Positions 5,890 to 54,960 of a stretch of DNA of 64,000 nucleotides are shown in pieces (position 1 is the first letter of the stretch; each line of letters starts with the position of its first letter). The stretch comes from Candidatus Sumerlaeota bacterium. Lineage in GTDB: Bacteria > Sumerlaeota > Sumerlaeia > UBA8349. The stretch is taken from contig JAFGFN010000026.1 of the NCBI GenBank assembly GCA_016931035.1, forward strand, positions 21,235 to 85,234, in the 5' to 3' direction. The notes beneath the pieces are model-generated. The model was not told the DNA's origin. It ran no database searches and worked only from the letters and a program-made list of their open reading frames with translations. Both the position numbers and the translations under genes were made by a program.

Positions 5890-7746
5890 ATGGGGTCGAA
5901 CATGACCGAGACCGAGTGGATTCTCGTCTTCCTGACGGCGATCTTCGTCCTGGGAATCGGCGCCCAATGGCTCGCCTGGCGGTTGCGCGTCCCGTCGATT
6001 CTCCTCCTCCTGGCCTTCGGATTACTCGCCGGGCCGGGCCTGGGTTGGATCGATCCCGACGCGTTGTTCGGCAACACGCTCTTCCCCATCGTCTCGTTGT
6101 CGGTCGCGGTAATTCTGTTCGAGGGCGGCCTGAGCCTTCGTCTCCACGAGCTGCACGAGACTCTGGCCGTGATTCGCAATCTGGTCACCGTCGGCGCGCT
6201 GGTCACCTGGGTTTTGGCCTCGCTCGGCGCCTGGCTCATCCTCGGTTTCGACCCCCAGGTCGCCGTCGTCCTGGGCGCGATCCTCGTCGTCACCGGACCG
6301 ACGGTCATCGGCCCTCTCCTCCGCCACATCCATCCTGTGCGCCGCGCCGGGGTCATCTCCAAGTGGGAAGGCATCATCATCGATCCCGTCGGTGCGTCTC
6401 TGGCCGTCCTGGTCTTCGAGGCGACTCAAGCCATCGGTTCCCACGGACTGGGCGAGGCATCGGTCCAGGTCGGCCGGAGCATCCTTCTGACCGTCGCAAC
6501 GGGAGGGGTCATCGGCGCAGCCGTAGCCGGACTCGCCGTTCTCCTCTTGCGCCGCTACTGGATGCCCGACTTTCTCCAAAGCCCGATGCTCCTCATGTTT
6601 GTCGCCGCCGCGTTCACGGCCTCCAACCTGATTCACGAAGACTCGGGATTGTTGACCGTCACCCTGATGGGGATCGTCCTCGCGAACCAGAAGGCCGTGC
6701 CCATCCGCCACATCGTCGAGTTCAAGGAGAATCTCCGCGTCCTCCTGATCTCGACCCTCTTCATCCTGCTCGCCTCTCGCCTCAAGCGCAGCGACTTGGC
6801 GCAGCTCGGGTGGCACAGCGCGGTGTTCGTCGCGTTCCTGATGCTGATCGTACGTCCCGCTTCCGTTCTCCTGTCCACGATCCGCTCGGGCCTGAATTGG
6901 CGCGAGAAAGCGTTTCTCTCGTGGCTCGCGCCGCGCGGCATCGTCGCGGCCGCGGTGGCCTCGGTGTTCGCGCTGCGCTTCGGCGAGGAAGGGACGAGAC
7001 TGGTCCAGGAGACCTTCCTGGTCATCGCGGCCACGGTCGCCATCTACGGCTTGACCACCCCATGGCTCGCGCGCCGCCTCGGCCTGGCGACCCCCAATCC
7101 CCAGGGAATCCTCATCGTCGGCGCCAATTCGGTCGGACTCGCCATCGGCGCCAAGATCCGAGAGGCCGATTATCGCGTCGTCTTCCTCGACACGAACCGC
7201 CGAGCGGTCCGCGAGGCGCGCATGGCGGGTTTCGAGGCGCACTGCGAGAACATCCTGGCCGAGGGCGTGTTCGAGACGATCGACCTGGGAGGCGTCGGGC
7301 GCATCCTGCTCCTGACCCCGAACGATGAGGTCAACGCCCTGGCGGCGCTCCACGTCATGGAGGTGTTCGGCCGCGCTTCCGTCTTCCAGATTCCGCCCCA
7401 ATCCGAAGGCGTGAAGACCAAACCCGAGGCCGTCTCCGGCAAGCGGCGCGGACGCCCGCTTTTCGCGCCGCACTCCAGTTACCTCTACTTCTGGAACCGC
7501 TTGAGAGAGGGCGCTCAGGTCAAGAAGACCCCCCTGAGCGACGAATTCGGCTATGCCGAGTTCCGGGCGAAGTACGGCGACGCGGCGTTGCCCCTCTTCA
7601 TCATCGACAAGGACAAGAACCTGTCCATTTGCACGGCGGACCGCGAGGCCGCGCCCCAGGCGGGAGAATCCCTGATCGCCCTGGTCGACGATCCCGACCC
7701 CGATTCCCCGACCCGCGACTCGGACGAACCATCCTCTTCGTCCTGA
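5890..7746 (+). CDS. Na+/H+ antiporter, CPA1/NhaP type, with a C-terminal TrkA-N-like regulatory domain
   Basis: An N-terminal transmembrane domain of about 400 aa (motif LFEGGLSL) is followed by a soluble Rossmann-like region. An alternative start is at 5902. Confidence 0.8.
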   Translation: MGSNMTETEWILVFLTAIFVLGIGAQWLAWRLRVPSILLLLAFGLLAGPGLGWIDPDALFGNTLFPIVSLSVAVILFEGGLSLRLHELHETLAVIRNLVTVGALVTWVLASLGAWLILGFDPQVAVVLGAILVVTGPTVIGPLLRHIHPVRRAGVISKWEGIIIDPVGASLAVLVFEATQAIGSHGLGEASVQVGRSILLTVATGGVIGAAVAGLAVLLLRRYWMPDFLQSPMLLMFVAAAFTASNLIHEDSGLLTVTLMGIVLANQKAVPIRHIVEFKENLRVLLISTLFILLASRLKRSDLAQLGWHSAVFVAFLMLIVRPASVLLSTIRSGLNWREKAFLSWLAPRGIVAAAVASVFALRFGEEGTRLVQETFLVIAATVAIYGLTTPWLARRLGLATPNPQGILIVGANSVGLAIGAKIREADYRVVFLDTNRRAVREARMAGFEAHCENILAEGVFETIDLGGVGRILLLTPNDEVNALAALHVMEVFGRASVFQIPPQSEGVKTKPEAVSGKRRGRPLFAPHSSYLYFWNRLREGAQVKKTPLSDEFGYAEFRAKYGDAALPLFIIDKDKNLSICTADREAAPQAGESLIALVDDPDPDSPTRDSDEPSSSS

Positions 7747-21891: not shown

Positions 21892-22515
21892 ATGGACTCC
21901 ATCACCCACATTCTGAGCGCCGTGATCGTCACCGAGCCGCTGCCCGTCCCCGCGGTCGAGGAGGGTGCAGTCTACGCGCGTTGGCGAGAGCGCTTGGCGA
22001 TCCTCCTCGCGGCCCTGCTGCCCGACGCCGACGGCGTTCTCGGTTGGATCGACCCGGCGCTTTACGCCCGCTATCACCGCGTCGCGACGCATTCCGTTCT
22101 GGGGCTTGTGATCCTCGTCTTTCTTTCGGCTTGGATCGCGCGCGCGTGGCCCGAGACCCTCCTGCCCCCTTTCGTCCGACGGCGATACGCGGGGCAAAAG
22201 ACGATCCCTCCGGCCTTCCGGCGTCTTCTGGCGTTCGCCTCTGTCGCGATTGTGTGCCATTGGCTGGGCGATTGGGTGGCGCGATGGGGGATTTGGCCGC
22301 TTTGGCCGTTCTGGAACGAGGATGTCGCTCTGGGACGCGTCAACTCGCTCGACGGCGTTCTCCTCGCCTTGACCGTGACGGCTTGGGCGATCCAACATCT
22401 CTTTCTCGTTCGGGGCAAGCGCCGCGCGGGTTGGATCGTCGCAGCGACCTGGATTCTCCTTTTCGCCGCGTACGTGTGGCTTCGGCCCTACTGGGGGCCG
22501 CCCGCCTATGTGTGA
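21892..22515 (+). CDS. Membrane-bound metal-dependent hydrolase (YdjM/DUF457 family)
   Basis: Starts MDSITHIL. Four hydrophobic helices, 207 aa. Confidence 0.55.
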   Translation: MDSITHILSAVIVTEPLPVPAVEEGAVYARWRERLAILLAALLPDADGVLGWIDPALYARYHRVATHSVLGLVILVFLSAWIARAWPETLLPPFVRRRYAGQKTIPPAFRRLLAFASVAIVCHWLGDWVARWGIWPLWPFWNEDVALGRVNSLDGVLLALTVTAWAIQHLFLVRGKRRAGWIVAATWILLFAAYVWLRPYWGPPAYV

Positions 22516-22636
22516 CCAGGAGGGCGGATCGAACGATTCGCATCGCAAATCCCTCCTTCTCGCTTTGTGCGCACGCTCGTCTGCGGTTTTTCTCTCCTTG
22601 ACACCCTCGGTGCGGCCTGATACTTCTACTTGAATT

Positions 22637-23821
22637 TTGGGTTGGAGAAAGGACCCGAGGGTGACCGACTTCGGCGAGCTCCGCCGAGCCGAACGACCGA
22701 CAGCGCGGCTGATGCTCGAGGACGGCGTGTGGTTTGAAGGGACTGGCTTTGGGAAACCAGGCGAGACCGTCGGAGAAGTCGTTTTCAATACCTCGATGAC
22801 GGGGTATCAGGAAATCCTGACCGATCCCTCCTATTTCGGTCAGATGGTCACGATGACCTATCCCCTGATCGGCAACTACGGCGCCACCCCCCTCGACGAA
22901 GAATCCGCCCGACCCCAGGCGCGCGCCCTGATCGTCAAGGAACTTTCCCAGACTTACAGCAATTGGCGGGGCGAGGACTCGCTCGACGCCTATCTCCGGC
23001 GGGCGGGCGTCGTAGGTCTGACCGACATCGACACCCGCGCCCTGGTTCTACACCTTCGCAACACGGGGGCGAAAAACGGCGTCCTGAGCACTGAGGACAT
23101 GGACCTGGACTCGCTCCGCGCCAAGGCCCGGGCCGCGCCCAAGATGGCGGGGCTCGACTTGGCTCAGTGCGTGACGTGCGAAGGCAAATACGAATACGAG
23201 GGCGCACGCCGCGGTCTGCCCCAGGACGGACGCCGCATCCTCCACGTGGTCGCCTACGACTTCGGGATGAAACGCAACATTTGCGACCTCATGCGGGCCG
23301 AAGGGTTCCGGGTCACCGTCGTCCCCGCGCGCGCAACCGCCGAAGAGGCGCTCGCGCTCGAACCCGACGGCATCTTCTTGAGCAACGGTCCCGGCGATCC
23401 CGAGCCATGCACCTACGCGATCGAAGCCGCGCGCGAGCTCATCCAAGGGGGAAAGCCGACGTTCGGGATCTGTCTGGGGCACCAAATCATGGGCCTCGCC
23501 CTCGGCGGCAAGACCTACAAGCTCAAGTTCGGCCATCGCGGCGCCAACCACCCGGTGCGCGACGAAGCGACGGGCCGGATCGAGATCACGTCGCAGAACC
23601 ACGGTTTCTGCGTCGATGCCGACAGCCTGGACCCCTCGAAGGTCGAAATCACGCACTGGAACCTCAACGACATGACCGTCGAGGGGCTGCGGCACAAGGA
23701 ATTGCCCGCGTTCTCGGTGCAGTACCACCCCGAGGCCTCGCCCGGGCCGCACGACGCATCGTATCTGTTTCCGAGGTTTCGGAAGATGATCGAAGAGAAT
23801 CTCCTTATAAGGATGAAGTAG
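22637..23821 (+). CDS. carA: Carbamoyl-phosphate synthase small (glutaminase) subunit
   Basis: Glutaminase catalytic motif GICLGHQ. An alternative start is at 22712 ([14 protein letters not shown]). Confidence 0.9.
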
Positions 23822-23852
23822 GAAGGATGAAGGATGAAATAGGAAGGATGAA
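23811..23852. repeat. 2 x 21-bp tandem direct repeat (ggatgaaRtaggaaggatgaa) spanning the carA stop codon
   Basis: The two copies are 20/21 identical. The first copy contains the carA TAG at 23819-23821. Confidence 0.7.
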
Positions 23853-23895
23853 CGACGAGAGACTGAGGGTTTCCTGAAACGAGGTTCTCTTGTGT

Positions 23896-24045
23896 GGAGT
23901 GCGGAACCTTGGTTCCGCTTTCATCGGCGGGAGCTTGCTCCCGACGAACCGGGAGATCGGAGAGTCTATAGTCGACGGCGCAAGCAAGATTGCGCCGCAA
24001 AAAGCGGAGCCCAGTCCGCCTCAGGCGGACAAGGTTCCGCACTCC
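23896..24045. repeat. 16-bp perfect inverted repeat (ggagtgcggaaccttg / caaggttccgcactcc) enclosing 118 bp with nested hairpins. MITE-like element or structured leader RNA.
   Basis: Left arm 23896-23911, right arm 24030-24045. Internal hairpins: gggagcttgctccc, ggcgcaa-gcaaga-ttgcgcc, gtccgcc-tca-ggcggac. Confidence 0.5.
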
Positions 24046-24058
24046 AAAACGGAGAAGA

Positions 24059-24700
24059 ATGCCCGACACGCCGCCCACAACGCTTTTCATCGTCCGTCAC
24101 GGCGAGACCGCCTGGAACGTCGAGCAGCGTCTCCAGGGGCAGTTGGACAGTCCTCTGACCGACCTGGGTCGGCGACAGGCCGAAGCGGTCGCCGAGCGAT
24201 TGGCCGAGGAGAACCTGGACGTTCTCTATAGCAGCGACCTTGGTCGCGCGATGGAAACCGCTCGCGTCATTGCCGACCGCTGCGGCGGTCCGGAGATCGT
24301 TCCGGACGCAGGATTAAGGGAGCGCAACTTCGGCATCTTCAACGGACTGAATTTCGCCGAGGCGCGCGAGCGAGACCCCGAGGCGTACTCGCACTGGATG
24401 GAATACGACTACGTAGTCCCCGGCGGCGAAAGCCCTCGCCAGAAGGCCGAGCGCGGGATCGCGGCGGTCGAAACCGTCGCGCGGCGTCATCCGGGAAGGA
24501 AGATCGGCATCGTGACGCACGGTGGCATTCTGACGAGTCTTCTGCGCCGCGTGATGCACGTCGAGGCCGAGGCGCCGCACGGGTTCCTGACGTACAACGG
24601 CGCGGTCAACGTCTTTCTGATGGAGAACGGCGCGCTGAAACTCTCGACCTGGGGCGACATCCGCCATCTCCGCCGCATCGGGACGAAGGACGATTTCTAG
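24059..24700 (+). CDS. Histidine phosphatase family protein (phosphoglycerate mutase-like)
   Basis: Catalytic RHGET motif at the N-terminus ([12 protein letters not shown]). Confidence 0.8.
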
Positions 24701-24722
24701 CCGAGCGCGAGACACTCATCGA

Positions 24723-27700
24723 ATGCCCAAACGCACCGACATCCACAAGATCCTCATCATCGGCTCCGGCCCGATCGTCATCGGCCAGGCGTGCGAGTTC
24801 GACTATTCCGGCACCCAAGGATGCAAAGCGCTGCGCGAAGACGGCTACGAGGTCGTCCTGGTCAATTCGAATCCCGCCACGATCATGACCGACCCCGAGT
24901 TCGGCGATCGCACCTATATCGAACCGCTTACCGTCGAAACCGTGGCCGAGATCATCGCCGCCGAGCGGCCCGATGCCCTTTTGCCCACCCTGGGCGGCCA
25001 GACGGGCCTGAACCTGGCGATGGACCTCCACCACGCCGGGGTCCTCGACAAGTACAACGTCGAGATGATCGGCGCCAAACCCGACGCGATCGAACGCGCC
25101 GAGGATCGCCTCCACTTCAAGGAGACGATGGAGCGCATCGGGATCGACGTGCCGCGCAGCGTCGTCGTGAAGACCCTGGACGAGGCTCGTCGCGCCGCCG
25201 AATCCCTCGGTTATCCCAACATCGTCCGTCCCTCCTACACCCTCGGCGGCACCGGCGGCGGCGTGGCCTACAATCCCGAGGAGTTCGAAGAAATCGTCAA
25301 GCGCGGCCTCTTTCTCTCTCCGATCACCGAAGTCATGATCGAGGAGTCGGTCCTCGGCTGGAAAGAGTACGAGCTCGAAGTGATGCGCGACATGGCCGAC
25401 AACGTCGTCATCGTCTGCTCGATCGAGAACGTCGACTCGATGGGGGTCCACACCGGCGACTCGATCACCGTCGCCCCAATCCAGACCCTGAGCGACGTCG
25501 AGTACCAGGCGATGCGCGACGAAGCGATTCGCATCATCCGCGCCATCGGAGTCGATACGGGCGGAAGCAACATCCAGTTCGCCGTCCACCCCGAGAACGG
25601 CCGACGCGTCGCCATCGAAATGAACCCGCGCGTGTCGCGTTCGAGCGCGCTCGCCTCGAAGGCGACGGGTTTCCCGATCGCCAAGATCGCGGCGAAACTC
25701 GCCGTCGGATACCGTCTCGACGAGTTGCCCAACGACATCACGCAAAAGACCCCCGCCTGTTTCGAGCCGACCATCGACTACTGCGTCGTCAAGATTCCGC
25801 GGTTCAACTTCGAGAAGTTTCCCGGCGCCGACCCGACCCTCGGCACCCAGATGAAATCGGTCGGCGAGACGATGGCGATCGGCCGCACGTTCAAGGAAGC
25901 GCTCCAGAAGGGTCTTCGCGGACTGGAGATCGGCCGCCACGGTCTCGGCGCCGACGGCAAGTCGGTCCCGCCCGGCTCGGGCAACCCGACGGGGATCGAC
26001 CGCGAGCTACTCGAGGGCAAACTCAAGACACCCAACGCCGACCGGATCTTCTACGTCAAGTACGCCCTCGTGCAGGGGATGTCGATCGACCGGGTCTACG
26101 CGCTCACCGCCATCGATCCCTGGTTCCTGGTCAACATCGCCGACCTGATCGAAATGGAACGCGAGATCGAGAACGAGATCGTCCCGCTCCTGGGCAACCC
26201 GACGCAACACGCCGAGGGCACGCCCCTCGCGCGGCGGATGCGCCGCGCCAAACAGTTCGGCTTCAGCGATTTCCAGATCGCCACGATTGCGAATCGGGTC
26301 CTCGGGCCCATAAGTCCTATAGGTCCTATGTGTCCTATTCTTTCCGAGATGGACATCCGCAAGATCCGTCTCGCCCTCGGCGTCCGCGCGGTCTACAAGT
26401 GCGTCGATACGTGCGCGGGCGAGTTCGAAGCGTACACGCCCTACTTCTACTCGACCTACGACGCCGCGCCTTACCCCTGGGCCAACGAACCGAAACGTTC
26501 GGACAAGAAACGCGTCATCATCCTCGGCGGCGGCCCGAATCGCATCGGCCAGGGGATCGAGTTCGACTATTGCTGCGTCCAGGCGGTCTTCGCCCTTCAG
26601 AAGCTCGGCTGCGAAGCCATCATGGTCAACTCGAATCCCGAGACGGTCTCGACCGACTACGACACCGCCGACAAACTCTACTTCGAGCCGCTGACCGTCG
26701 AGGACGTTCTCAACATCTGCGATCAGGAACAGCCCGACGGCGTGATCGTCCAGTTCGGCGGCCAAACGCCTCTCAATCTCGCGAAGAAACTCGAAGCCGC
26801 GGGCGTCCCCATCGTCGGCACCTCGCCCCGCTCGATCGAACTGGCCGAGGACCGCAAGTTCTTCAGCGAACTCCTCGACTCGCTCGAGATTCCGCAGACG
26901 GAAAGCGGCACCGGGTTCACCTTCGAGGAATGCCGCACGGTCGCGAACCGCATCGGCTATCCCGTCATGGTGCGCCCCTCGTTCGTCCTAGGCGGACGCT
27001 CGATGGAAACCGTGTACGACGACGAGACGCTCGAACGCTACATGGTCGAGGCCGTGAAGGTCTCGCCCGAGCACCCGATCCTGATCGACAAGTTCCTCGA
27101 GGAAGCGATCGAGGTGGACGTCGACGCGGTGGCCGACACAGAGAACGTCGTCATCGCCGCCATCATGGAACACATCGAACTCGCCGGAATCCACTCGGGC
27201 GACTCGGCCTGCGTTATTCCCACCCACACGCTGGCGCCCGAAATCCTCGACACCATACGCGACTACACCCGCGCCCTAGGCAAGGCGCTCGACGTTCGCG
27301 GACTCATGAACATCCAGTACGCCGTTAAGGACGGCCGGGTCTACGTCCTCGAAGTCAACCCGCGCGCCTCGCGCACCGTTCCGTTCGTGAGCAAGGCCAT
27401 CGGCCGCCCCGTGGCCCAGATCGCCACCCGGGTGATGACCGGCATGACGCTCGCCGAAGCGGGCTTCACCCGCGAGGTCGTCATCCCGCATTACGCCGTC
27501 AAGGAAGCGGTTCTCCCGTTCCTCAAGTTCCAGGGCGCGCGCATCGCCCTCGGGCCCGAGATGCGATCGACCGGCGAAGTCATGGGGATCGACATGGATT
27601 TCGGCCTCGCGTTCATTAAGTCGCAACAAGGCGCCATGGGTCACTTCCCCACGAGCGGCGGCGTCTTCGTCTCGGTCTGCGACAAAGACAAGCCCCTCAT

Positions 27701-28061
27701 CGCCCCGATCGCGCGCGAGCTCGTCAAACTCGGGTTCGTGCTCTACGCGACGCGCGGAACGCAGGACTTTCTCGCCGGCCAGGGCGTCCCCGCCAAGAAG
27801 GTTTTCAAGGTCAACGAAGGCCGGCCCAACGTCGTGGACCTGATGATCGACGGCAAGCTCGACCTCATCGTCAACACCCCGCTGGGACGCGCCTCGATGT
27901 ACGACGAAGCGGCGATCCGCGCCAACGCCGTTTCGCGCAACGTCTGCCTTGTGACGACGCTCGCCGCCGCCCGCGCGGTGGTCGAGGGTCTCCAGGCGCT
28001 CCGCGCCCAAAAACCCACCACCAAAGCGCTGCAGGACTATCACCGTGAGATCGCGCGATGA
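24723..28061 (+). CDS. carB: Carbamoyl-phosphate synthase large subunit
   Basis: 1112 aa with duplicated ATP-grasp halves (two copies of FDYSGTQ/FDYCCVQ) and a C-terminal MGS-like domain. Confidence 0.95.
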
Positions 28062-34814: not shown

Positions 34815-35016
34815 GAGGGCGAAAAACGACCGGCGAGAGAGATCGCGCATCCGGGGAGATCGAGCCCCGCCTCGGGTTCGACCGACATCATAGGTCCATT
34901 CCTCGCGTCCCGTCAAACGGCATATCCACACGGCTCTCCTGGGAATCTTGGGGAAGAACCCGGACACGCGCGCTCGAAAAGGGAGGAGGCTCCTTCTCCG
35001 CGGGGATTTCTTGGGC

Positions 35017-35112
35017 TGTCGTTGACTCCGGCCAACTGAAGTTGGAACAACAAACGAAGAATCGGAATCGGTCAGGCCCGTCTGTTTGTCGTTCCAGCTT
35101 CAGCTGGCCAAC
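35017..35112. repeat. 96-bp palindromic repeat element, copy A (REP/MITE-like)
   Basis: Begins tgtcgttgactccggccaactgaagttggaacaacaaacgaaga, has a central loop, and its right arm is the near reverse complement of the left. The first 44 nt are identical to copy B apart from 2 SNPs. Confidence 0.8.
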
Positions 35113-35787
35113 GGCTCCCTCGTTCCCCGGAAATCCCCAAAGGCCCCCCCACGCTTCCGGAGGGTGAGCGGCGCAGAACGGGCGGCATGTTCCGTTCGCC
35201 TTCCTCTGTGCACGCCAAAGGCGTGCCAGCCTCCGGCCTGGGGTTGGCGCGGCGCGGCCGAGCGCAGCGAAGCCGCGCAACGCGGCTACCCCAGGAACAC
35301 GCGACCCCATTTTCGTTCTTCAACCCGGAACGGGTTGTGGCCTATTGGCCCATTGCGCCACAACCCCGTTGGGGTTGTCTGAATTGGGACGTACGTGACC
35401 CAAGGTAGCGCCTGCCCGGCTCCGCTCCGCTTCGCCGTGCCGGGCGGCGCAACCTTGGGCTGTAGGCTGCGGCCCCGTTGGGGCCGAAAAGAAGAACGGG
35501 CCGAAGAAGTCCAATCCGACGCGTTGTATGGACGTTGTCGTTTGTGCAGCACAGACCGACCCCGAGAGTCCGCAGACTTCGCCGCTTCCCCCATCCCCGT
35601 CGTACACGCACTTCCGGAACCGCAGGAGAATCGGGTTGTGTCGCGCACTCGGGCGGTGATACGATCTCTGCCAGTGTCCAGAGACCCTTCTTCTTCCCGT
35701 CTTTCCGGACACAGACCGCTCGTTCGGACGGACCGAGCGCGCGCATCGCGACGGCCGTCGGACCGACACATCTAGAGAGAAGAAACG

Positions 35788-44915: not shown

Positions 44916-44966
44916 GGCTTTTCCTGAATGCGGAGAATACCTCTTGCCGACGCCGATCTCTCGAGT

Positions 44967-45062
44967 TGTCGTTGACTCTGGCCAACTGAAGTTGGAACAA
45001 CAAACAAAGAACCCACACGGGCTACGCTTGTCCGTTTGTTGTCCCAACTTCAGTTGGCCAAC
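44967..45062. repeat. 96-bp palindromic repeat element, copy B
   Basis: Same 5' 44 nt as copy A (2 SNPs). Right arm ccgtttgttgtcccaacttcagttggcc is the near-perfect reverse complement of the left arm. Same orientation as copy A. Confidence 0.8.
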
Positions 45063-45101
45063 ACATCCGTCATTCCCGAGAATCCCGGAAGTGTCTTCAT
45101 C

Positions 45102-49193: not shown

Positions 49194-51047
49194 ATGAACG
49201 ATTCGGCCATCCGCCTCAAAGAGCTCGGGAAGATGTACAAACTCTTCCGCCATCCGGCGGACAGGGTGTTCGACGCGTTCGGTCTCCGCCGCCGTCCGTT
49301 CGGACCCAAACTCGTCTTCCAGGAGTTCTGGGCGCTGCGCGGCATCGACCTGCGCGTGACCAAGGGGGAGAGAATCGGCATCATCGGCCAGAACGGCGCG
49401 GGCAAAAGCACCCTGCTCAAGATCGTCACCGGCGTCGCTGCGCCGACCGAAGGGAGCGTCGAGGTCTCGGGACAGATTCAGGCCTTGCTCGAACTCGGGA
49501 CCGGTTTCCACCCGGAATTCACGGGACGCGAGAACATCCGGGCGTCGTTGTCGCTCAACGAATTCTCCTCGTCCGAGATCCGCGAGATGGAGGAGGATAT
49601 CGTCGACTTCGCGGAACTCGGCGATTTCATCGACCACCCTCTCAAGACCTATTCGGCGGGGATGGCGGCCCGATTGGCTTTCTCGACCGCCTCGGCCATT
49701 CGGCCCGAAATCCTCATCATCGACGAGGTCCTGGGCGCGGGCGACGCCTACTTCGCGGGCAAATGCGTCGAACGGATGAAGCAACTCACCCACGAATCGG
49801 GCGCGACGGTCCTCTTCGTCAGCCACGACCTGAACAGCGTCCAGGCCCTGTGCGAGCGCGTCCTCTGGATTCATCGCGGCCAGGTGCATCGCGACGGCGC
49901 GCCGCTCGATACGATCCAGGACTACATGGCGATGGTGCGGCGCGACGAGGAAACGCGGCTCCGCGCGCGCGACCTGAGAGTCCTGAAGAAACAGGCCCTC
50001 TTCCTCGAACGGGACGAGGACGTTTACGAAAAGACCTTGTTCCACTTTGTTTGTCCCGGATCGCCTCCCCCGCCGCCGGGACAGCGCATCTACGGCCTGA
50101 CCCTCTCGGTCGACGAGCAGGAGGCCGCCCGAATCGCGGTCGGGAGCCCGATGGACAATTCGGCCGATCACATGAATTACCTCATGGACACTCCCGGCTA
50201 CATGGACTGGGGACCCGCCGCCAAGGATCGCAACAGTCGGCCCTATCGCGAGTACGGCGACTACAAGGGGCGCTACGGCCACGCCCCCTTCGAGTTCGCC
50301 GTGCCGCGCACTCTGTTGCGCGAGGGCGAGACGCAACGCCTTCAACTCGACATCGAAGCCTCCGTCACTCATGAGGGCATCGCCGTCGAGGCGTACAACG
50401 GCGAGGCCTATGTCCCGATCGGCCCCGTCGCTACGGGCGAAGGCGTGGCGACGCGCCTCGAGTTTTCGAGCGCCCTTCTCCGACCCGGAAAGCAAGCGCT
50501 CGGCGCCGCCGCGCCGTCCGGAGAAACCGCTCTTCTGTCCGCCGCCGAACGTCCGGCCGAGCACGCGCCTCAACAACCCGTCCGCCACGAATACGGCGCG
50601 GGAGGGGCGAAGATTCTCCAGGTGCGAATGCTCAACGCCCAGGGCGAGGACACGCGCGTCTTTCATCCCGACGAACCGATGCGGGTCGAGATCGAATTCC
50701 AAGCCGAGGCCGAGCTGGCCGATCCCGTCTTCGTGTTCTGCGCCTATCTGCCCGACGGCCGGTGCGCCACCCAGTGGATCGTCGATTCGCGGACAATGGG
50801 CTCGCCCCGCGTGCCGCCGGGCAAGGGGCGCGCGACGTTTCGGATCGACCGGCTTGTCTTGGGCAAGTCCGCCTACGTCGCCAGCGCGGCGATCTTCAAG
50901 TTCCTGCGTCCCGACGGGCGGGAACCCGAAAGCTATCACGTCCTCGACCGATGCATCCATTTCCAAGTGGTACAAGGCGTAGAACACGTTTACGAGAAAG
51001 GGTTGTGCGTGCAACCCTTCGAGGCGGAGATCGATCTTGGACGCTGA
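49194..51047 (+). CDS. wzt: Polysaccharide ABC exporter ATP-binding protein with a C-terminal carbohydrate-binding extension
   Basis: Nucleotide-binding domain (GQNGAGKST, LSGG-like, DEVLGAGD) in residues 1-250. About 180-aa unique linker. C-terminal 150-aa Wzt_C-like beta-sandwich (KILQVRMLNAQGE...). Confidence 0.85.
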   Translation: MNDSAIRLKELGKMYKLFRHPADRVFDAFGLRRRPFGPKLVFQEFWALRGIDLRVTKGERIGIIGQNGAGKSTLLKIVTGVAAPTEGSVEVSGQIQALLELGTGFHPEFTGRENIRASLSLNEFSSSEIREMEEDIVDFAELGDFIDHPLKTYSAGMAARLAFSTASAIRPEILIIDEVLGAGDAYFAGKCVERMKQLTHESGATVLFVSHDLNSVQALCERVLWIHRGQVHRDGAPLDTIQDYMAMVRRDEETRLRARDLRVLKKQALFLERDEDVYEKTLFHFVCPGSPPPPPGQRIYGLTLSVDEQEAARIAVGSPMDNSADHMNYLMDTPGYMDWGPAAKDRNSRPYREYGDYKGRYGHAPFEFAVPRTLLREGETQRLQLDIEASVTHEGIAVEAYNGEAYVPIGPVATGEGVATRLEFSSALLRPGKQALGAAAPSGETALLSAAERPAEHAPQQPVRHEYGAGGAKILQVRMLNAQGEDTRVFHPDEPMRVEIEFQAEAELADPVFVFCAYLPDGRCATQWIVDSRTMGSPRVPPGKGRATFRIDRLVLGKSAYVASAAIFKFLRPDGREPESYHVLDRCIHFQVVQGVEHVYEKGLCVQPFEAEIDLGR

Positions 51048-54000
51048 CACCCAATACTTCGATCAGCCCGAAATCTGGGGACAGGCGCCGGAACCGTACC
51101 AGCGCCAGGTCCTGGCGGACGTTCTCAGTCTGTTGCCCGACGACGTCGAGAGCGTCCTGGACGCCGGCTGCGGCGACGGCTACATCGCGAACGCCCTGCC
51201 CGAACGCCTTCGCGTCGTCGGACTCGACGTGAGCGAAACGGCCCTCCAACACGTCCGCCGGGAAACGCGGGTCGGGTCGATCGCGGACCTTCCGTTCCCC
51301 GACGGATCGTTCGATCTCGCGATGGCCAACGACGTGGTCGAACATCTGTCGAAAGAGGATTACCGGCGGGCCCTGGCCGAACTGCGGCGCGTCTCTCGGA
51401 AGTACATCCTTCTCACGGTTCCCCTCAACGAACAACTCGAAGCGAACGAAGCCCGGTGCGCCGATTGCGGGGCGATCTACCACGTGAACCATCATCGGCG
51501 ATCTTTCTCCGAACGGTCCCTCGATCGTCTGTTCGGCGCCAGGTTCAAAGTCGTCGAAACCCGGCTGTCGGGAGACGTGACCGGAAGACCGCGCGACCCG
51601 ACCGCCGCGCTTCGTCGGAACCTGGGTTTCTATCACACATGGGAAAAGGCTATGTGCCCCGAGTGCGGGTCGAAACGCCAAATCCAGCCACCCACTTCTT
51701 CCACCCTGCGCCGGACGCTCGACGCTCTGCGCACGCGACGTTATGCGGAGACTCTCGTGCAACGCGGCCCGTGGAACGATCGTTCGGAAATCGTCGCGCT
51801 GTTCTCGCGTCGCCCGGGGCGGGTCCCTCTCGAAGACCTCTCTCCCGAAACGTTCTCCGTCCCCGCGCTCCGTGTGAATCTCGCCAATGCTCTCCAACGC
51901 GCCGAACCTGGGTTCACGCCGGGCGCGATCCGGCCTCGCTTTCTAACCCGGGGACCGTGGGAAGCGACCCCCAACGGTCTCCAAGCCCGGACGGGCGACG
52001 AACCGTCGCTCGTCCTCATCCGCTTTCCCGTCGAGCCCCGAGAAGGCGATCGACTCATCGTCGAAAGCGAGGGACGCGGTCGGTTGATCGTCTCCTCCCT
52101 CGATCCTCTCCTCGGGCGCGCGTTCGCTCTTCAGGACAAGCGCTACACGCAGGAGGACGCCCGGTTTCTGGAGATTCCCGTTTGCGAGACCTGGTGGCCC
52201 GACCAGGCGGGTTGGGGACTGGAGATTGTCGCCCAAGACGCTCTCGTGCTTCATTCCGTCGAGCTCCGGCCCGCCTCGGACGCCGCTCGGCGAACACTCA
52301 ACGCCGTCCGTCTCGAACCGGGACACCACATCGTGCGACGAACGATCGACGGCGTGGTGCGTTCGTGGGGACTCATGACGGAACACGCAGGATGGCGCCC
52401 GCTGCCGGATCTCGAAGCGTTCTTCTCGAAATCTCGCCCCAAACCCGAATCCCACGACGCCGATTGGGCTGAGTTCGCCGAGACGATCCGGGAGGCGGAC
52501 GACCGACGCCGCCGCGAGATCGATCTCCTCCGACGCGGCTCCGAGTTGACCGAGACGAAGCGCGCGAGGGCCGAAGAAGCGTATTCTCAAGCGCAAGAAC
52601 GGGCCTCGGCGGTGGAGACGGCGCGCGACGAGATGCAGGCGCTTCGAACCCAAGTCGAGACGCTCCGCGCCGCGCTGACTCGCACCGAGGAGGCGCGAGA
52701 CCGGGCCGAGAAGAGCTATATCGCCGCCTGCGAAGAACATCGGGCCTTGAGCGCCGAAACGGAATCGCTGCGCAAGACTCTGGCTCAAACCGAGGAGGGA
52801 TGGAGCCGGGCCGAGAAAACCTACATCGCCGCCTGCGAAGAACACCAGGCGCTTTGCGCCGAGACCCAGTCGTTGCGCGACGGTCTCGCGCGGACGGAAG
52901 AGGCGCGGAATCGAGCGGAGAAGAGCTATATCGCCGCGTGCGAAGAACATCAGGCGATGCGTCGCGGGACGGAGTCTTTGCGCAACGCCCTCACCGAGGC
53001 CGAGAACGCGCTCCGGCGCGCGCAGGAGGACCACGAGACGGACCTGAAGGAGAAAGAGCGTCTCCGCGACGAAGCGCGAGAACTCCGGACGGCCCTGTCT
53101 CAGGCCCAGGAGACCCGCCGGCGCGCCGAAGAATCGTGCGCGGCACTGCGCGACGAGAAGAACGCGCTCCACGACCAGCTCGCGAACGTGCGCGACGCGC
53201 TCGTTCAGGTGGAACAGGCGCGCGACCGCGCCGAGAACGCTCGCGTCGCCCTGTCCGAAGAACGGCTGGCGCTTCGAGTCGACATGGACGCCCTGAGACG
53301 TTCTCTCGCTCAGACCGAGAAAGAACGTCTCAGGATCGAAAGCGCGTCGGCCGCGCTGGAACGTCGAGTGATGAAACTCGAGCAGGCGCTGACCGATGCG
53401 GAACAGGAAATCGCGACCTCGAAACAGGAAGTCGCCTCTCTGCACGATGAGACCGTCCGCGCCGAGGTAGAGATCGACAAGACGCGCAGGCAGCGCGACA
53501 AGGCGGAGAACGCCTGTGTCGTCCTGCGAAAATCCCACGAAGACCTCGAGAAGCGCCTCGCGGCCCTAACCGAAGAATGTCGCTCGATGCGAGGCGTGCG
53601 GGGCGGGACGCGCGAGATTCTCTACGCCGTCAAGAAATGGATCGTCGGGCACCCTCCCGATTCGCCAGACGAGACGTATCCCGCGCGCTGGAAGTCGTTG
53701 CCCGCCGCCCTCGCCGACGGCCGCTCGCCCCGGGTCCTCGTTCTGTCCCACATGTTCCCGCATCCCGATCAACCCGCGCTCGGCTCCTTCATCCTCGAGC
53801 AGGTCCGGGCGCTCCGTCGCGACGCGGGAGTCGACGCCCGCGTCCTTTCGGGCCGACCTTACTGGATGAACCTCTCGCGCCATCCCCGAACGCTGTGGCT
53901 CCGAAACCTCGACTATTCGCGCAAGGCGCTCCCCAACGTCCGCTGGCGTGAACTCGACGGCGTCCCGGTCATGTACGTCCCCTACCGAGTCGTCGCCCGT

Positions 54001-54960
54001 CCGTGGACGCACGGCTGGTCGTATCGCAACGCCATGATGCGCGTGCTCGACCGGGTGCGAGCGGAATTCCGTTTCGACCTGGTCCACGCCCACACCGCCT
54101 ATCTCGACGGGACCGCCGGTCTGGCCATCGCTCGGCGCTTCGGAGTTCCGTTCCTTATCACCGAGCACACCGGCCCGTTCTCTCATTTACTTCGCGGTCC
54201 CATCATGACCCGCCAAACGAAACGCGCGCTCAACGGCGCCGACCGGACGATCGCCGTGTCGAACGACCTGAAACGAAACATGGGCGAAGTCATGAGTCCG
54301 GAGAAGGGCGAAAAGATCGTCGTCCTGCCCAACGGCGTCGACACGGAACTCTTCCGTCTGCCCGACGAACACCGGCCCGATCCGCGAGCGCCGCGCATCT
54401 TCTTCGTCGGCGGACTCGGACCCGTCAAGAACCTGCGTCTTCTCCTTAGGGCGTTCCAGATTATCGCGGGAGAGACTCCCGATGCGACACTGAACCTGAT
54501 CGGGGGCGAGGAAAAGGCCGGCAAGAAGAAGGTTCTCGACGATCTCGCCGGGGAACTCGGCCTGGTCAACCAAGTGCGATTCCTCGGACCCAAGACGCGC
54601 GAGGAAGTGGCGGAGCTCCTTCGCGAGGAGGCGGATCTCCTAGTCCTGTCCAGTCGGACGGAGACTTTCGGTTGCGTTCTTGTCGAGGCGATGGCGTGCG
54701 GCAAACCGGTCGTCGCCACGCGGTGCGGAGGACCCGAAGACATCGTGGCCGACAACCAAGTCGGACGGTTGTGCGAGAACGACAACGTCGAGGACCTGGC
54801 GCGGGCGCTTCGCGAGACGATCGAGAACCTTCCGCGATTCTCGCCGCAAGTCATCCGCCAATTCGCGGTCGAACGCTACGGATACGACGCCCTCACCGAG
54901 AACCTGCGACGGCTCTATGCGGAGCTCGCCGGGGCTGGAAACGGGCTACGCCGGACATGA
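51037..54960 (+). CDS. Tri-domain protein: SAM-dependent methyltransferase, extended coiled coil, glycosyltransferase family 4
   Basis: TTG start overlaps the wzt stop. MT motif I VLDAGCGDGY with Zn-ribbon-like CADC...CPEC. Residues about 480-850 form a heptad-periodic, 35-aa repeat coiled coil. Residues about 900-1307 form a GT4 domain ending in an EX7E region (ETFGCVLVEAMACGKPVVAT). Confidence 0.8.
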   Translation: MDADTQYFDQPEIWGQAPEPYQRQVLADVLSLLPDDVESVLDAGCGDGYIANALPERLRVVGLDVSETALQHVRRETRVGSIADLPFPDGSFDLAMANDVVEHLSKEDYRRALAELRRVSRKYILLTVPLNEQLEANEARCADCGAIYHVNHHRRSFSERSLDRLFGARFKVVETRLSGDVTGRPRDPTAALRRNLGFYHTWEKAMCPECGSKRQIQPPTSSTLRRTLDALRTRRYAETLVQRGPWNDRSEIVALFSRRPGRVPLEDLSPETFSVPALRVNLANALQRAEPGFTPGAIRPRFLTRGPWEATPNGLQARTGDEPSLVLIRFPVEPREGDRLIVESEGRGRLIVSSLDPLLGRAFALQDKRYTQEDARFLEIPVCETWWPDQAGWGLEIVAQDALVLHSVELRPASDAARRTLNAVRLEPGHHIVRRTIDGVVRSWGLMTEHAGWRPLPDLEAFFSKSRPKPESHDADWAEFAETIREADDRRRREIDLLRRGSELTETKRARAEEAYSQAQERASAVETARDEMQALRTQVETLRAALTRTEEARDRAEKSYIAACEEHRALSAETESLRKTLAQTEEGWSRAEKTYIAACEEHQALCAETQSLRDGLARTEEARNRAEKSYIAACEEHQAMRRGTESLRNALTEAENALRRAQEDHETDLKEKERLRDEARELRTALSQAQETRRRAEESCAALRDEKNALHDQLANVRDALVQVEQARDRAENARVALSEERLALRVDMDALRRSLAQTEKERLRIESASAALERRVMKLEQALTDAEQEIATSKQEVASLHDETVRAEVEIDKTRRQRDKAENACVVLRKSHEDLEKRLAALTEECRSMRGVRGGTREILYAVKKWIVGHPPDSPDETYPARWKSLPAALADGRSPRVLVLSHMFPHPDQPALGSFILEQVRALRRDAGVDARVLSGRPYWMNLSRHPRTLWLRNLDYSRKALPNVRWRELDGVPVMYVPYRVVARPWTHGWSYRNAMMRVLDRVRAEFRFDLVHAHTAYLDGTAGLAIARRFGVPFLITEHTGPFSHLLRGPIMTRQTKRALNGADRTIAVSNDLKRNMGEVMSPEKGEKIVVLPNGVDTELFRLPDEHRPDPRAPRIFFVGGLGPVKNLRLLLRAFQIIAGETPDATLNLIGGEEKAGKKKVLDDLAGELGLVNQVRFLGPKTREEVAELLREEADLLVLSSRTETFGCVLVEAMACGKPVVATRCGGPEDIVADNQVGRLCENDNVEDLARALRETIENLPRFSPQVIRQFAVERYGYDALTENLRRLYAELAGAGNGLRRT
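52684..52998 (+). repeat. 3 x 105-bp near-identical in-frame tandem repeats encoding 35-aa coiled-coil units (RAEKSYIAACEEH...)
   Basis: Unit starts at 52684, 52789 and 52894. At least four more diverged 35-aa units follow. Confidence 0.8.

Follow-up and report, generated by a model that had tools for sequence, protein, structure and literature searches.

Repetitive extragenic palindromes (REPs) are stem-loops of 20–40 bp with a conserved tag at one end; they include sub-families with alternative complementary stem residues, form head-to-head and tail-to-tail dimers with spacers of 20–100 bp, and alternate in orientation in bacterial interspersed mosaic elements (BIMEs) (PMC3733652, PMC2817692). 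Palindromic repeats are also described from bacteria of the Planctomycetes–Verrucomicrobia–Chlamydiae (PVC) superphylum, among them the GTAG-20 family of Opitutus terrae, tagged GTGG (PMC3733652). Here we analyse the spacer between carA and a histidine phosphatase gene in a 64,000-nt stretch of a Candidatus Sumerlaeota genome (assembly GCA_016931035.1, contig JAFGFN010000026.1, positions 21,235 to 85,234 of the forward strand; hereafter the window, with positions counted from its first base). The spacer contains an inverted repeat that we interpret, with moderate confidence, as a doublet of palindromic repeats resembling REPs, BIMEs and REPINs (hairpin-forming REP doublets). On sequence grounds, each arm of the inverted repeat is the head of a self-contained unit of ~30 nt, composed of (T)TTGGAGTGCGG, a variable stem-loop and CCGCTTT. 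Outside the window's genome these units form a family with a fixed head and tail, a covarying stem and frequent inverted pairs, and they are kept at an orthologous locus.

The units resemble the REPs and BIMEs of Escherichia coli and other Proteobacteria in being GC-rich, imperfect palindromes of ~30 nt tagged at one end, in occupying intergenic spacers (including those within operons), in forming alternating clusters with variable linkers and extra motifs, and in having stem variants that keep pairing. The GTAG and CGTC superfamilies (28 families; Di Nocera et al. 2013, PMC3733652), compared here by description only, likewise combine a tag with a stem-loop, comprise alternative-stem sub-families, form head-to-head and tail-to-tail dimers with 20–100 bp spacers and occur in PVC bacteria, but GGAG is not among their listed degenerate tags. 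REPINs (Bertels and Rainey 2011, PMC3116915) share with the doublet the arrangement of two inverted units and a spacer in one long hairpin, and their vertical inheritance and long life at individual loci recall the units described here. Unlike REPINs, which are near-identical doublets within one genome accompanied by a single-copy REP-associated tyrosine transposase (RAYT), the window holds one doublet, and the partners are heterogeneous: one unit has a nested hairpin, and the stems of the two units at the orthologous locus (L081; comparison loci are cited by L numbers) are unrelated. By these structural hallmarks the doublet would work like a REP, although it is not a proven REP member.

Hairpin units between carA and the phosphatase gene

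The inverted repeat consists of GGAGTGCGGAACCTTG at 23896–23911 and its exact reverse complement at 24030–24045, and it grows to 27 nt at 85% complementarity. It exists because two units, A and B, are opposed and happen to share their first stem bases; with A on the + strand and B on the − strand, they form a tail-to-tail (convergent) pair. The features are listed below, with bit scores and E values from R1, the covariance model of the unit described in the next section.

22637..23821, + strand: carA, carbamoyl-phosphate synthase small chain (Pfam CPSase_sm_chain 3e-51, GATase 3e-55; open reading frame (ORF) list)
23809..23852, + strand: purine-rich tandem repeat, (AAGGATG) x6.3 or 21 bp x2.1
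23855..23893, + strand: hairpin P0, ACGAGAGA ... TCTCTTGT, just 5' of unit A (centroid structure; pairing only)
23887..23927 (core 23895–23921), + strand: unit A, with the left 16-bp arm (R1 41.3 bits, E 5.7e-8)
23928..23943: hairpin H1, CGGGAGCTTGCTCCCG (partial R1 match, 11.9 bits, E 0.36)
23949..23960: weak hairpin H2, CCGG GAGA UCGG (predicted in the minimum free energy and centroid structures only)
23977..23996: hairpin H3, GGCGCAA-GCAAGA-TTGCGCC (sequence and fold)
23995..24047 (core 23999–24046), − strand: unit B, with the right 16-bp arm (R1 17.2 bits, E 0.021)
24051–24054, + strand: GGAG, Shine-Dalgarno-like site, followed by the phosphatase ATG at 24059–24061
24059..24700, + strand: histidine phosphatase family gene (His_Phos_1, Pfam 5.8e-59; 100% identical to MBN1866065.1, Candidatus Sumerlaeota bacterium)
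24723..28061, + strand: carB, carbamoyl-phosphate synthase large chain (Pfam CPSase_L_D2 8.5e-107 and related domains)
7435..7485, − strand: candidate degenerate unit in a long ORF, TGGAGTGCGGCGCG ... CGCGCCGCTTG (R1 14.7 bits, E 0.08)

Unit A has a head, TGGAG-T (23895–23900), a stem-loop, GCGGAACC-TT-GGTTCCGC (23901–23918), and a tail, TTT (23919–23921); its GC-rich stem of 8 bp is followed by UUUCAUC. Within the left arm, the inner half forms a palindrome of its own, a property absent from the initial annotation, which had reported the tandem 21-bp copies spanning the carA TAG, the 16-bp inverted repeat and three nested hairpins, all of them found exactly where it placed them. Two of these perfect internal hairpins are H1 and H3; the third, GTCCGCC..GGCGGAC (24014–24030), is nested in the loop of unit B, whose alignment to R1 takes a 20-nt loop insertion. 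Unit B has the head TTGGAGTGCGGAACC, which stops 12 nt short of the phosphatase ATG, and the tail GGCTCCGCTTTTT. Units with nested or extended loops occur elsewhere, for example in L095, L148, L169 and L194. H1 is headless in the window, and its stem-loop is the one found in complete units of L161 and L191. The 3' strand of P0 belongs to a 12-mer, TCTTGTGTGGAG, common to the window, L081 and L086/L209, and hairpins analogous to P0 by pairing precede the 12-mer in L081 and L086.

The + strand of positions 23880–24060 folds at −99.7 kcal/mol (z −7.6) and the − strand at −92.3 kcal/mol (z −8.3), far beyond shuffled sequences, none of which (0 of 200) matched the native energy. The two arms are the only copies of GGAGTGCGGAACCTTG in the window at up to 3 mismatches. 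R1 likewise recovered units A and B, the weak candidate at 7435–7485, which may be a chance match, and the partial match to H1, with nothing else solid in the 64 kb.

The unit family and its covariance model

Scanning metagenomes with the pattern TCTTGTGTGGAG-N15-CCGCTTTC returned one contig, L086. Within 4.3 kb it carries three occurrences of TGGAGTGCGG, two on one strand and the third on the opposite one, and a hairpin and CCGCTTT follow each of them. A scan of IMG/VR with TGGAGTGCGG-N(6-30)-CCGCTTT then gave 149 matches at 117 loci, some of which must be due to chance with so loose a pattern. The head-to-tail length is nonetheless peaked, with 81 of the 149 matches at 26–28 nt where 23–47 nt was permitted, the variable middle is almost always self-complementary and many contigs have 2–10 matches; these features argue that most of the short-gap matches are real.

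We aligned 82 distinct units from other contigs, in which the stem is 8 bp long with its four outer pairs fixed by the search pattern. The four inner pairs covary: changes on both sides affect 86 cells, compared with 29.5 in shuffles, a count that none of 500 shuffles reached. Pairing holds in 91% of cells of the 82 units, against 27–74% when the 3' partners are slid. The covariance model R1 was built from this alignment. Across 536 kb of carA loci from many phyla, R1 found only L086, L081 and two marginal matches, so the unit is not generic to GC-rich DNA. The head reads (T)TTGGAG-T generally and GTGTGGAG-T in unit A, with GTGG two bases from the stem; it was fixed by the search pattern in the IMG/VR set, and it can vary, as GGAGCACGG in L081 and GGACTGCGG in L207 show. 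A viral scan for the unit A head, TCTTGTGTGGAGYRCGG, gave six matches, none with a unit hairpin behind the head; they lie in coding-looking sequence and are apparently due to chance. BLAST of the consensus unit against plasmids and cultured phages produced chance-level matches only.

Two side observations concern the recognition of units. At 2997–3027 of L057 (Rudaea sp.), a unit-like hairpin, GAGTGCGGCCATCGATGGCCGCTTTCG, spans the start of the carA match (3001) and scores 24.6 bits with R1 (E 0.0035); it may be a chance match or an ordinary terminator. Many units are preceded by TA (L161 130, L135 6119, L167 6989, L194 13656 and others), and here ATGGAGTGCGG opens spurious ORFs beginning MECGG, MECGS or MECGT, which lengthen real genes or create false ones.

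Tail-to-tail pairs like that of the window, with units 70–200 nt apart, are common (L099, L109, L115, L135, L136, L161, L188 and L191, and five in L194), and phage contigs hold many tail-to-tail pairs. Spacers within doublets vary from ~15 to 375 nt and show no sequence relationship to one another; units also occur singly and in head-to-head pairs. The bacterial contig L207, fetched via homologues of a type II secretion gene of L086, has four units in 14 kb, arranged as two head-to-head pairs, one inside a spacer of the type II secretion operon and one after it. L209, a longer contig that shares the L086 intergenic region, has four units in 7.6 kb, and the unit order in L086/L209 is B', A, then B'; no unit occurs in 21 kb of a third relative, L204. 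The closest named GspF homologues for L086/L209 (44–47% identity) are from Planctomycetota and Verrucomicrobia. Units adjoin carA and the phosphatase gene, type II secretion genes, BNR sialidase-like and oxidoreductase genes, and phage portal, terminase and head genes; the tested unit-bearing IMG/VR contigs encode portal, terminase, major head and tape-measure proteins, and the L135 doublet lies between the terminase and portal genes.

[quoted passage not shown] As terminal inverted repeats the arms are perfect over 16 bp, or 85% complementary over 27 nt, the element would measure ~150 bp, the arms recur in other contigs, and other Sumerlaeota have carA followed by carB or other genes with the element absent. 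However, no target-site duplication is seen at the window doublet (flanks TCTTGTGT and AAAACGGA) or any of 17 other doublets, each arm is a hairpin unit in its own right that also occurs outside tail-to-tail pairs, the variable spacers share no homologous internal sequence, and the window has no second copy. Moreover, L081 has units with different stems at the same site, which disfavours a recent insertion. We consider a MITE improbable; what stands of that proposal is that the arms belong to a repeated and apparently mobile or amplified family, in which they are the heads of REP-like units.

Rfam 15 gave no match at the gathering score, whether in the window or in 10 loci that carry units. 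With E values up to 10, region 23700–24200 showed chance-level matches to small RNAs and small nucleolar RNAs only, and the L194 doublet only generic long-hairpin matches (microRNA precursors). We found no publication that describes a family headed by GGAG: no string in the supplements of PMC3733652 matches the unit, and full-text searches for sequence strings returned primers only. Retron non-coding RNA, integron attC sites, Y RNA, PyrR sites, boxA/boxB and Bacteroidetes-type promoters were also considered and dropped, with no matching feature.

An orthologous locus and the competing readings

The best carA matches (77–81% amino acid identity) are from Sumerlaeia/Sumerlaeota metagenome-assembled genomes (MAGs), and neither the phosphatase gene nor the structured spacer is present at the closest Sumerlaeota carA loci, L001, L002 and L011. 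In L002, carB follows carA after ~70 nt. Among phosphatase homologues in the protein collection, only P0002 exceeds 55% identity (69%); it lies on the 814-bp contig L081, which is orthologous because it ends in the start of carB, after the phosphatase gene. As a side observation, the phosphatase gene lies between carA and carB in both the window (24059–24700) and L081, with carA and carB adjacent in L002 (4080–4260); it looks as if the phosphatase gene and repeat mosaic had been inserted into, or lost from, a carAB pair.

The L081 leader is 127 nt long and includes, in this order, GGAAGGATGAAGGATGAA, ACTGAGAG, a hairpin and TCTTGTGTGGAG. Next comes a hairpin, CGGCG..CGCCG, which replaces GCGGAACC..GGTTCCGC of the window with compensated stem changes and is followed by CTTTC; a second hairpin, GCGCG..CGCGC, comes after that, with CACTCTAAAA between it and the ATG (CACTCTAAAAAA shortly 5' of the ATG). 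Both ends of the window structure are thereby preserved as a minimal doublet, along with GGAAGGATGAAGGATGAA, and the ~70 nt of internal hairpins and the long closing helix are missing. The L081 leader folds no better than shuffles (z −0.2). Copies of the arms exist elsewhere and the units are kept in a relative, in contrast to the absence of both that the initial annotation had named as evidence against its proposals; neither the long stem nor the 16-residue peptide is kept in L081.

The second option of the initial annotation was a cis-regulatory RNA, and we considered a gene-specific leader (riboswitch, thermosensor or attenuator) that hides the ribosome-binding site of the phosphatase gene. 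Both the fold and an inverted-repeat search predict that an outer stem can pair UUCUC (23885–23889) with GGAGAA (24051–24056), a CUCC-AAAAC-GGAG mini-hairpin is also possible, and L081 conserves part of the region. The pairing of UUCUC with GGAGAA is not conserved, because L081 has neither the closing stem nor a Shine-Dalgarno-like GGAG before the start codon. The Rfam null result, the absence of the leader from phosphatase homologues of ~50% identity in other gene contexts (P0003, P0004 and P0009), and the membership of the conserved parts in a general repeat family that adjoins unrelated genes further speak against a phosphatase-specific element, which we regard as very unlikely.

The tandem tract upstream calls for a separate account. 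Its 21-mer copies, GGATGAAGTAGGAAGGATGAA (23811–23831) and GGATGAAATAGGAAGGATGAA (23832–23852), are one mismatch apart, and the carA TAG (23819–23821) falls within the first copy, so that the last four carA codons lie in the tandem repeat as well. Tandem Repeats Finder reports 23809–23852 with a period of 21 (2.1 copies, 95% matches) and with a period of 7 (AAGGATG, 6.3 copies). No further copy of the 21-mer occurs in the window at up to 3 mismatches (shuffles expect 0), and AAGGATGAA occurs four times in the 44-nt tract and not elsewhere in the window. The tract is a purine-rich motif separate from the hairpin units and kept in the ortholog, which has the 18-mer GGAAGGATGAAGGATGAA unchanged. 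Because short-period tandem repeats adjoin hairpin clusters in L161 and L086/L209, the tract may be a further component of the repeat and hairpin mosaic.

The tract could alternatively be a translational control site, as a protein-binding platform (for example for a CsrA-like protein) or a small leader peptide. ARGGAUG is the core selected by CsrA in SELEX (in vitro selection) experiments, and each AAGGAUG copy fits it; the motif AAGGAUGAA is present four times in 44 nt and nowhere else in the window, and GGAAGGATGAAGGATGAA is shared with L081. An identity of 18 nt is unexceptional, however, since neighbouring coding DNA has identical runs of 26, 19 and 17 nt, and the tract lies ~200 nt from the phosphatase start. 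A tblastn search with CsrA sequences found no homologue in the window, which says little for 64 kb. The initially proposed 16-codon ORF MKDEIGRMNDERLRVS (ATG at 23828) does exist, but the same ATG in L081 encodes MKDEN-stop (5 residues), and a conserved peptide product is not upheld. We judge a platform or peptide function to have little likelihood, on a par with the leader RNA.

Short-period repeats recur beside units in two other places, recorded here as side observations. At L161 60–130, a heptamer tandem, (GATTGCG) x5, and a small hairpin lie directly 5' of a unit doublet, and the doublet ends at the ATG of the phage gene that precedes the major head gene; the order of tandem heptamers, hairpin, doublet and start codon is common to L161 and the window. 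The non-coding spacers at L086 417–1190 and L209 3945–4666 and 5756–6098 (340–750 nt) are packed with hairpins (fold z −11 and −8.5) and contain repeated CCCTCTCCC..GGGAGAGGG-type hairpins, a 9-nt tandem (GTCCGACCN) x6, a hairpin with a 33-bp stem and GGAGTGCGG units.

The most serious competitor is a selected signal rather than a selfish repeat, in which the unit (GGAGUGCGG, hairpin, CCGCUUU) would be a termination or RNA-processing module that a host factor reads between cistrons of bacteria and phages: for example a short-U intrinsic terminator, a bidirectional terminator when paired, or, where both units pair in a helix of ~27 bp, an RNase III site. Units sit in tight intercistronic spacers of phage structural modules, in contigs with confirmed phage genes, and persist there with compensated stems in related phages (L096, L131, L170, L176 and L183). 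Conservation at orthologous sites equals that of coding DNA, the elements at related loci being 68–73% identical and the adjoining coding DNA 66–72%. By rough ORF calls the unit head usually abuts a gene end, with more variation on the tail side. A same-strand stop lies 3–23 nt before 15 of 22 units, and an opposite-strand start lies 2–18 nt from 15 of 20. TTT(T) follows the hairpin, the one terminator scored by a scan of the region lies on the − strand within unit B, and the fold of the window doublet suggests a long, nearly continuous helix.

Orientation speaks against this reading. Between co-directional genes the intergenic units occur in both orientations, 13 sense and 17 antisense by rough gene calls, which argues against an RNA signal, whose asymmetric head should prefer one orientation. 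The U tract is only 3–4 nt, and downstream of carA the scan scored no terminator on the + strand. L081 lacks the long helix, so a stem of the RNase III type is not conserved at the locus. We therefore hold an RNA termination or processing module to be unlikely, though a clearly stronger candidate than the MITE.

A proposed palindromic repeat doublet and its possible roles

Several observations weigh against the REP-like interpretation itself. The tag is GGAG or GTGGAG followed by T, and not GTAG or CGTC. The window holds one doublet (two solid units) in 64 kb, a low copy number, whereas REPs usually exceed 100 copies per genome. Units also occur in phage genomes; residence inside true phage genomes, among terminase, portal and head genes, is atypical of REPs. 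No Y1_Tnp domain appears in the Pfam lists of genes called in L204–L210, in which no search aimed at RAYT (PF01797) was made. Lastly, one head and one tail turn up again in many unrelated contigs, and the elements are retained at orthologous sites at 54–69% protein identity; this recurrence and this retention could each instead mean a selected function.

We put forward a bolder proposal only tentatively, as an unlikely one. In it, the unit (GGAGUGCGG, covarying hairpin, CCGCUUU) is more than a further selfish REP: Sumerlaeota, PVC-like bacteria and their phages would share it as a sequence-specific signal, read by a protein (a single-stranded DNA nuclease or transposase, or an RNA termination or processing factor) and selected at orthologous intergenic sites over family-level divergence, with neighbouring short-period tandem repeats as a second working part. 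DNA uptake provides a comparison: in the uptake signal sequences (USS) of Haemophilus and the DNA uptake sequences (DUS) of Neisseria, inverted pairs of an asymmetric word of ~10 nt double as terminators. The units share with them an asymmetric conserved word of ~10 nt and frequent inverted pairs downstream of genes, and AGTGCGG of the unit is, we presume, common to the Haemophilus USS core AAGTGCGGT. Unlike USS and DUS, single units are themselves hairpins and have a conserved tail.

Returning to the REP-like doublet, units A and B, the hairpins of the spacer and the nested hairpin of unit B would together make up a mosaic of the REP/BIME/REPIN type. An enzyme recognizing head and hairpin, as a RAYT-type enzyme does for REPs, may spread or maintain the family at the DNA level. 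A promoter scan of 22400–24900 found no sigma-70-like promoter. We assume that carA, the phosphatase gene and carB form one transcript. In this mRNA the doublet would probably be only a very stable branched hairpin that senses no ligand. By analogy with REPs inside operons, the hairpin might shield the carA segment from 3' exonucleases, or it might be a partial stop or processing site that damps read-through and uncouples carA from the phosphatase gene and carB.

Two further repeats were noted in the window. An unrelated intergenic element is present in two copies (34982–35132 and 44932–45082), which align over 190 nt at ~82% identity and have a core of ~95 nt that is a long, near-perfect hairpin, TGGCCAACTGAAGTTGGAACAACAAAC ... 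GTTTGTTGTCCCAACTTCAGTTGGCCA, preceded by TTGTCGTTGACTC (fold z −5.7). It has no Rfam match at the gathering score and no exact IMG/VR match, and may represent another small family of repeats, or else a small RNA or a terminator belonging to this genome. At 52661–52975 (and 53186–53290), a 105-nt tandem repeat of 2.6–4 copies with 60–75% identity lies in the + strand ORF 51037–54960 and looks like a repeated 35-residue protein module.

If the doublet is REP-like, it is an ordinary feature of the locus, to be masked and not annotated as a riboswitch, small RNA or small ORF. The family has wider consequences for annotation, as gene callers turn units into spurious ORFs starting MECGG... and the family is not in Rfam, was found in poorly studied phyla and their phages, and matches coding DNA in its conservation at orthologous sites. 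A covariance model of it would clean MAG annotation and offer a route to studying how REP-like repeats are maintained outside the Proteobacteria.

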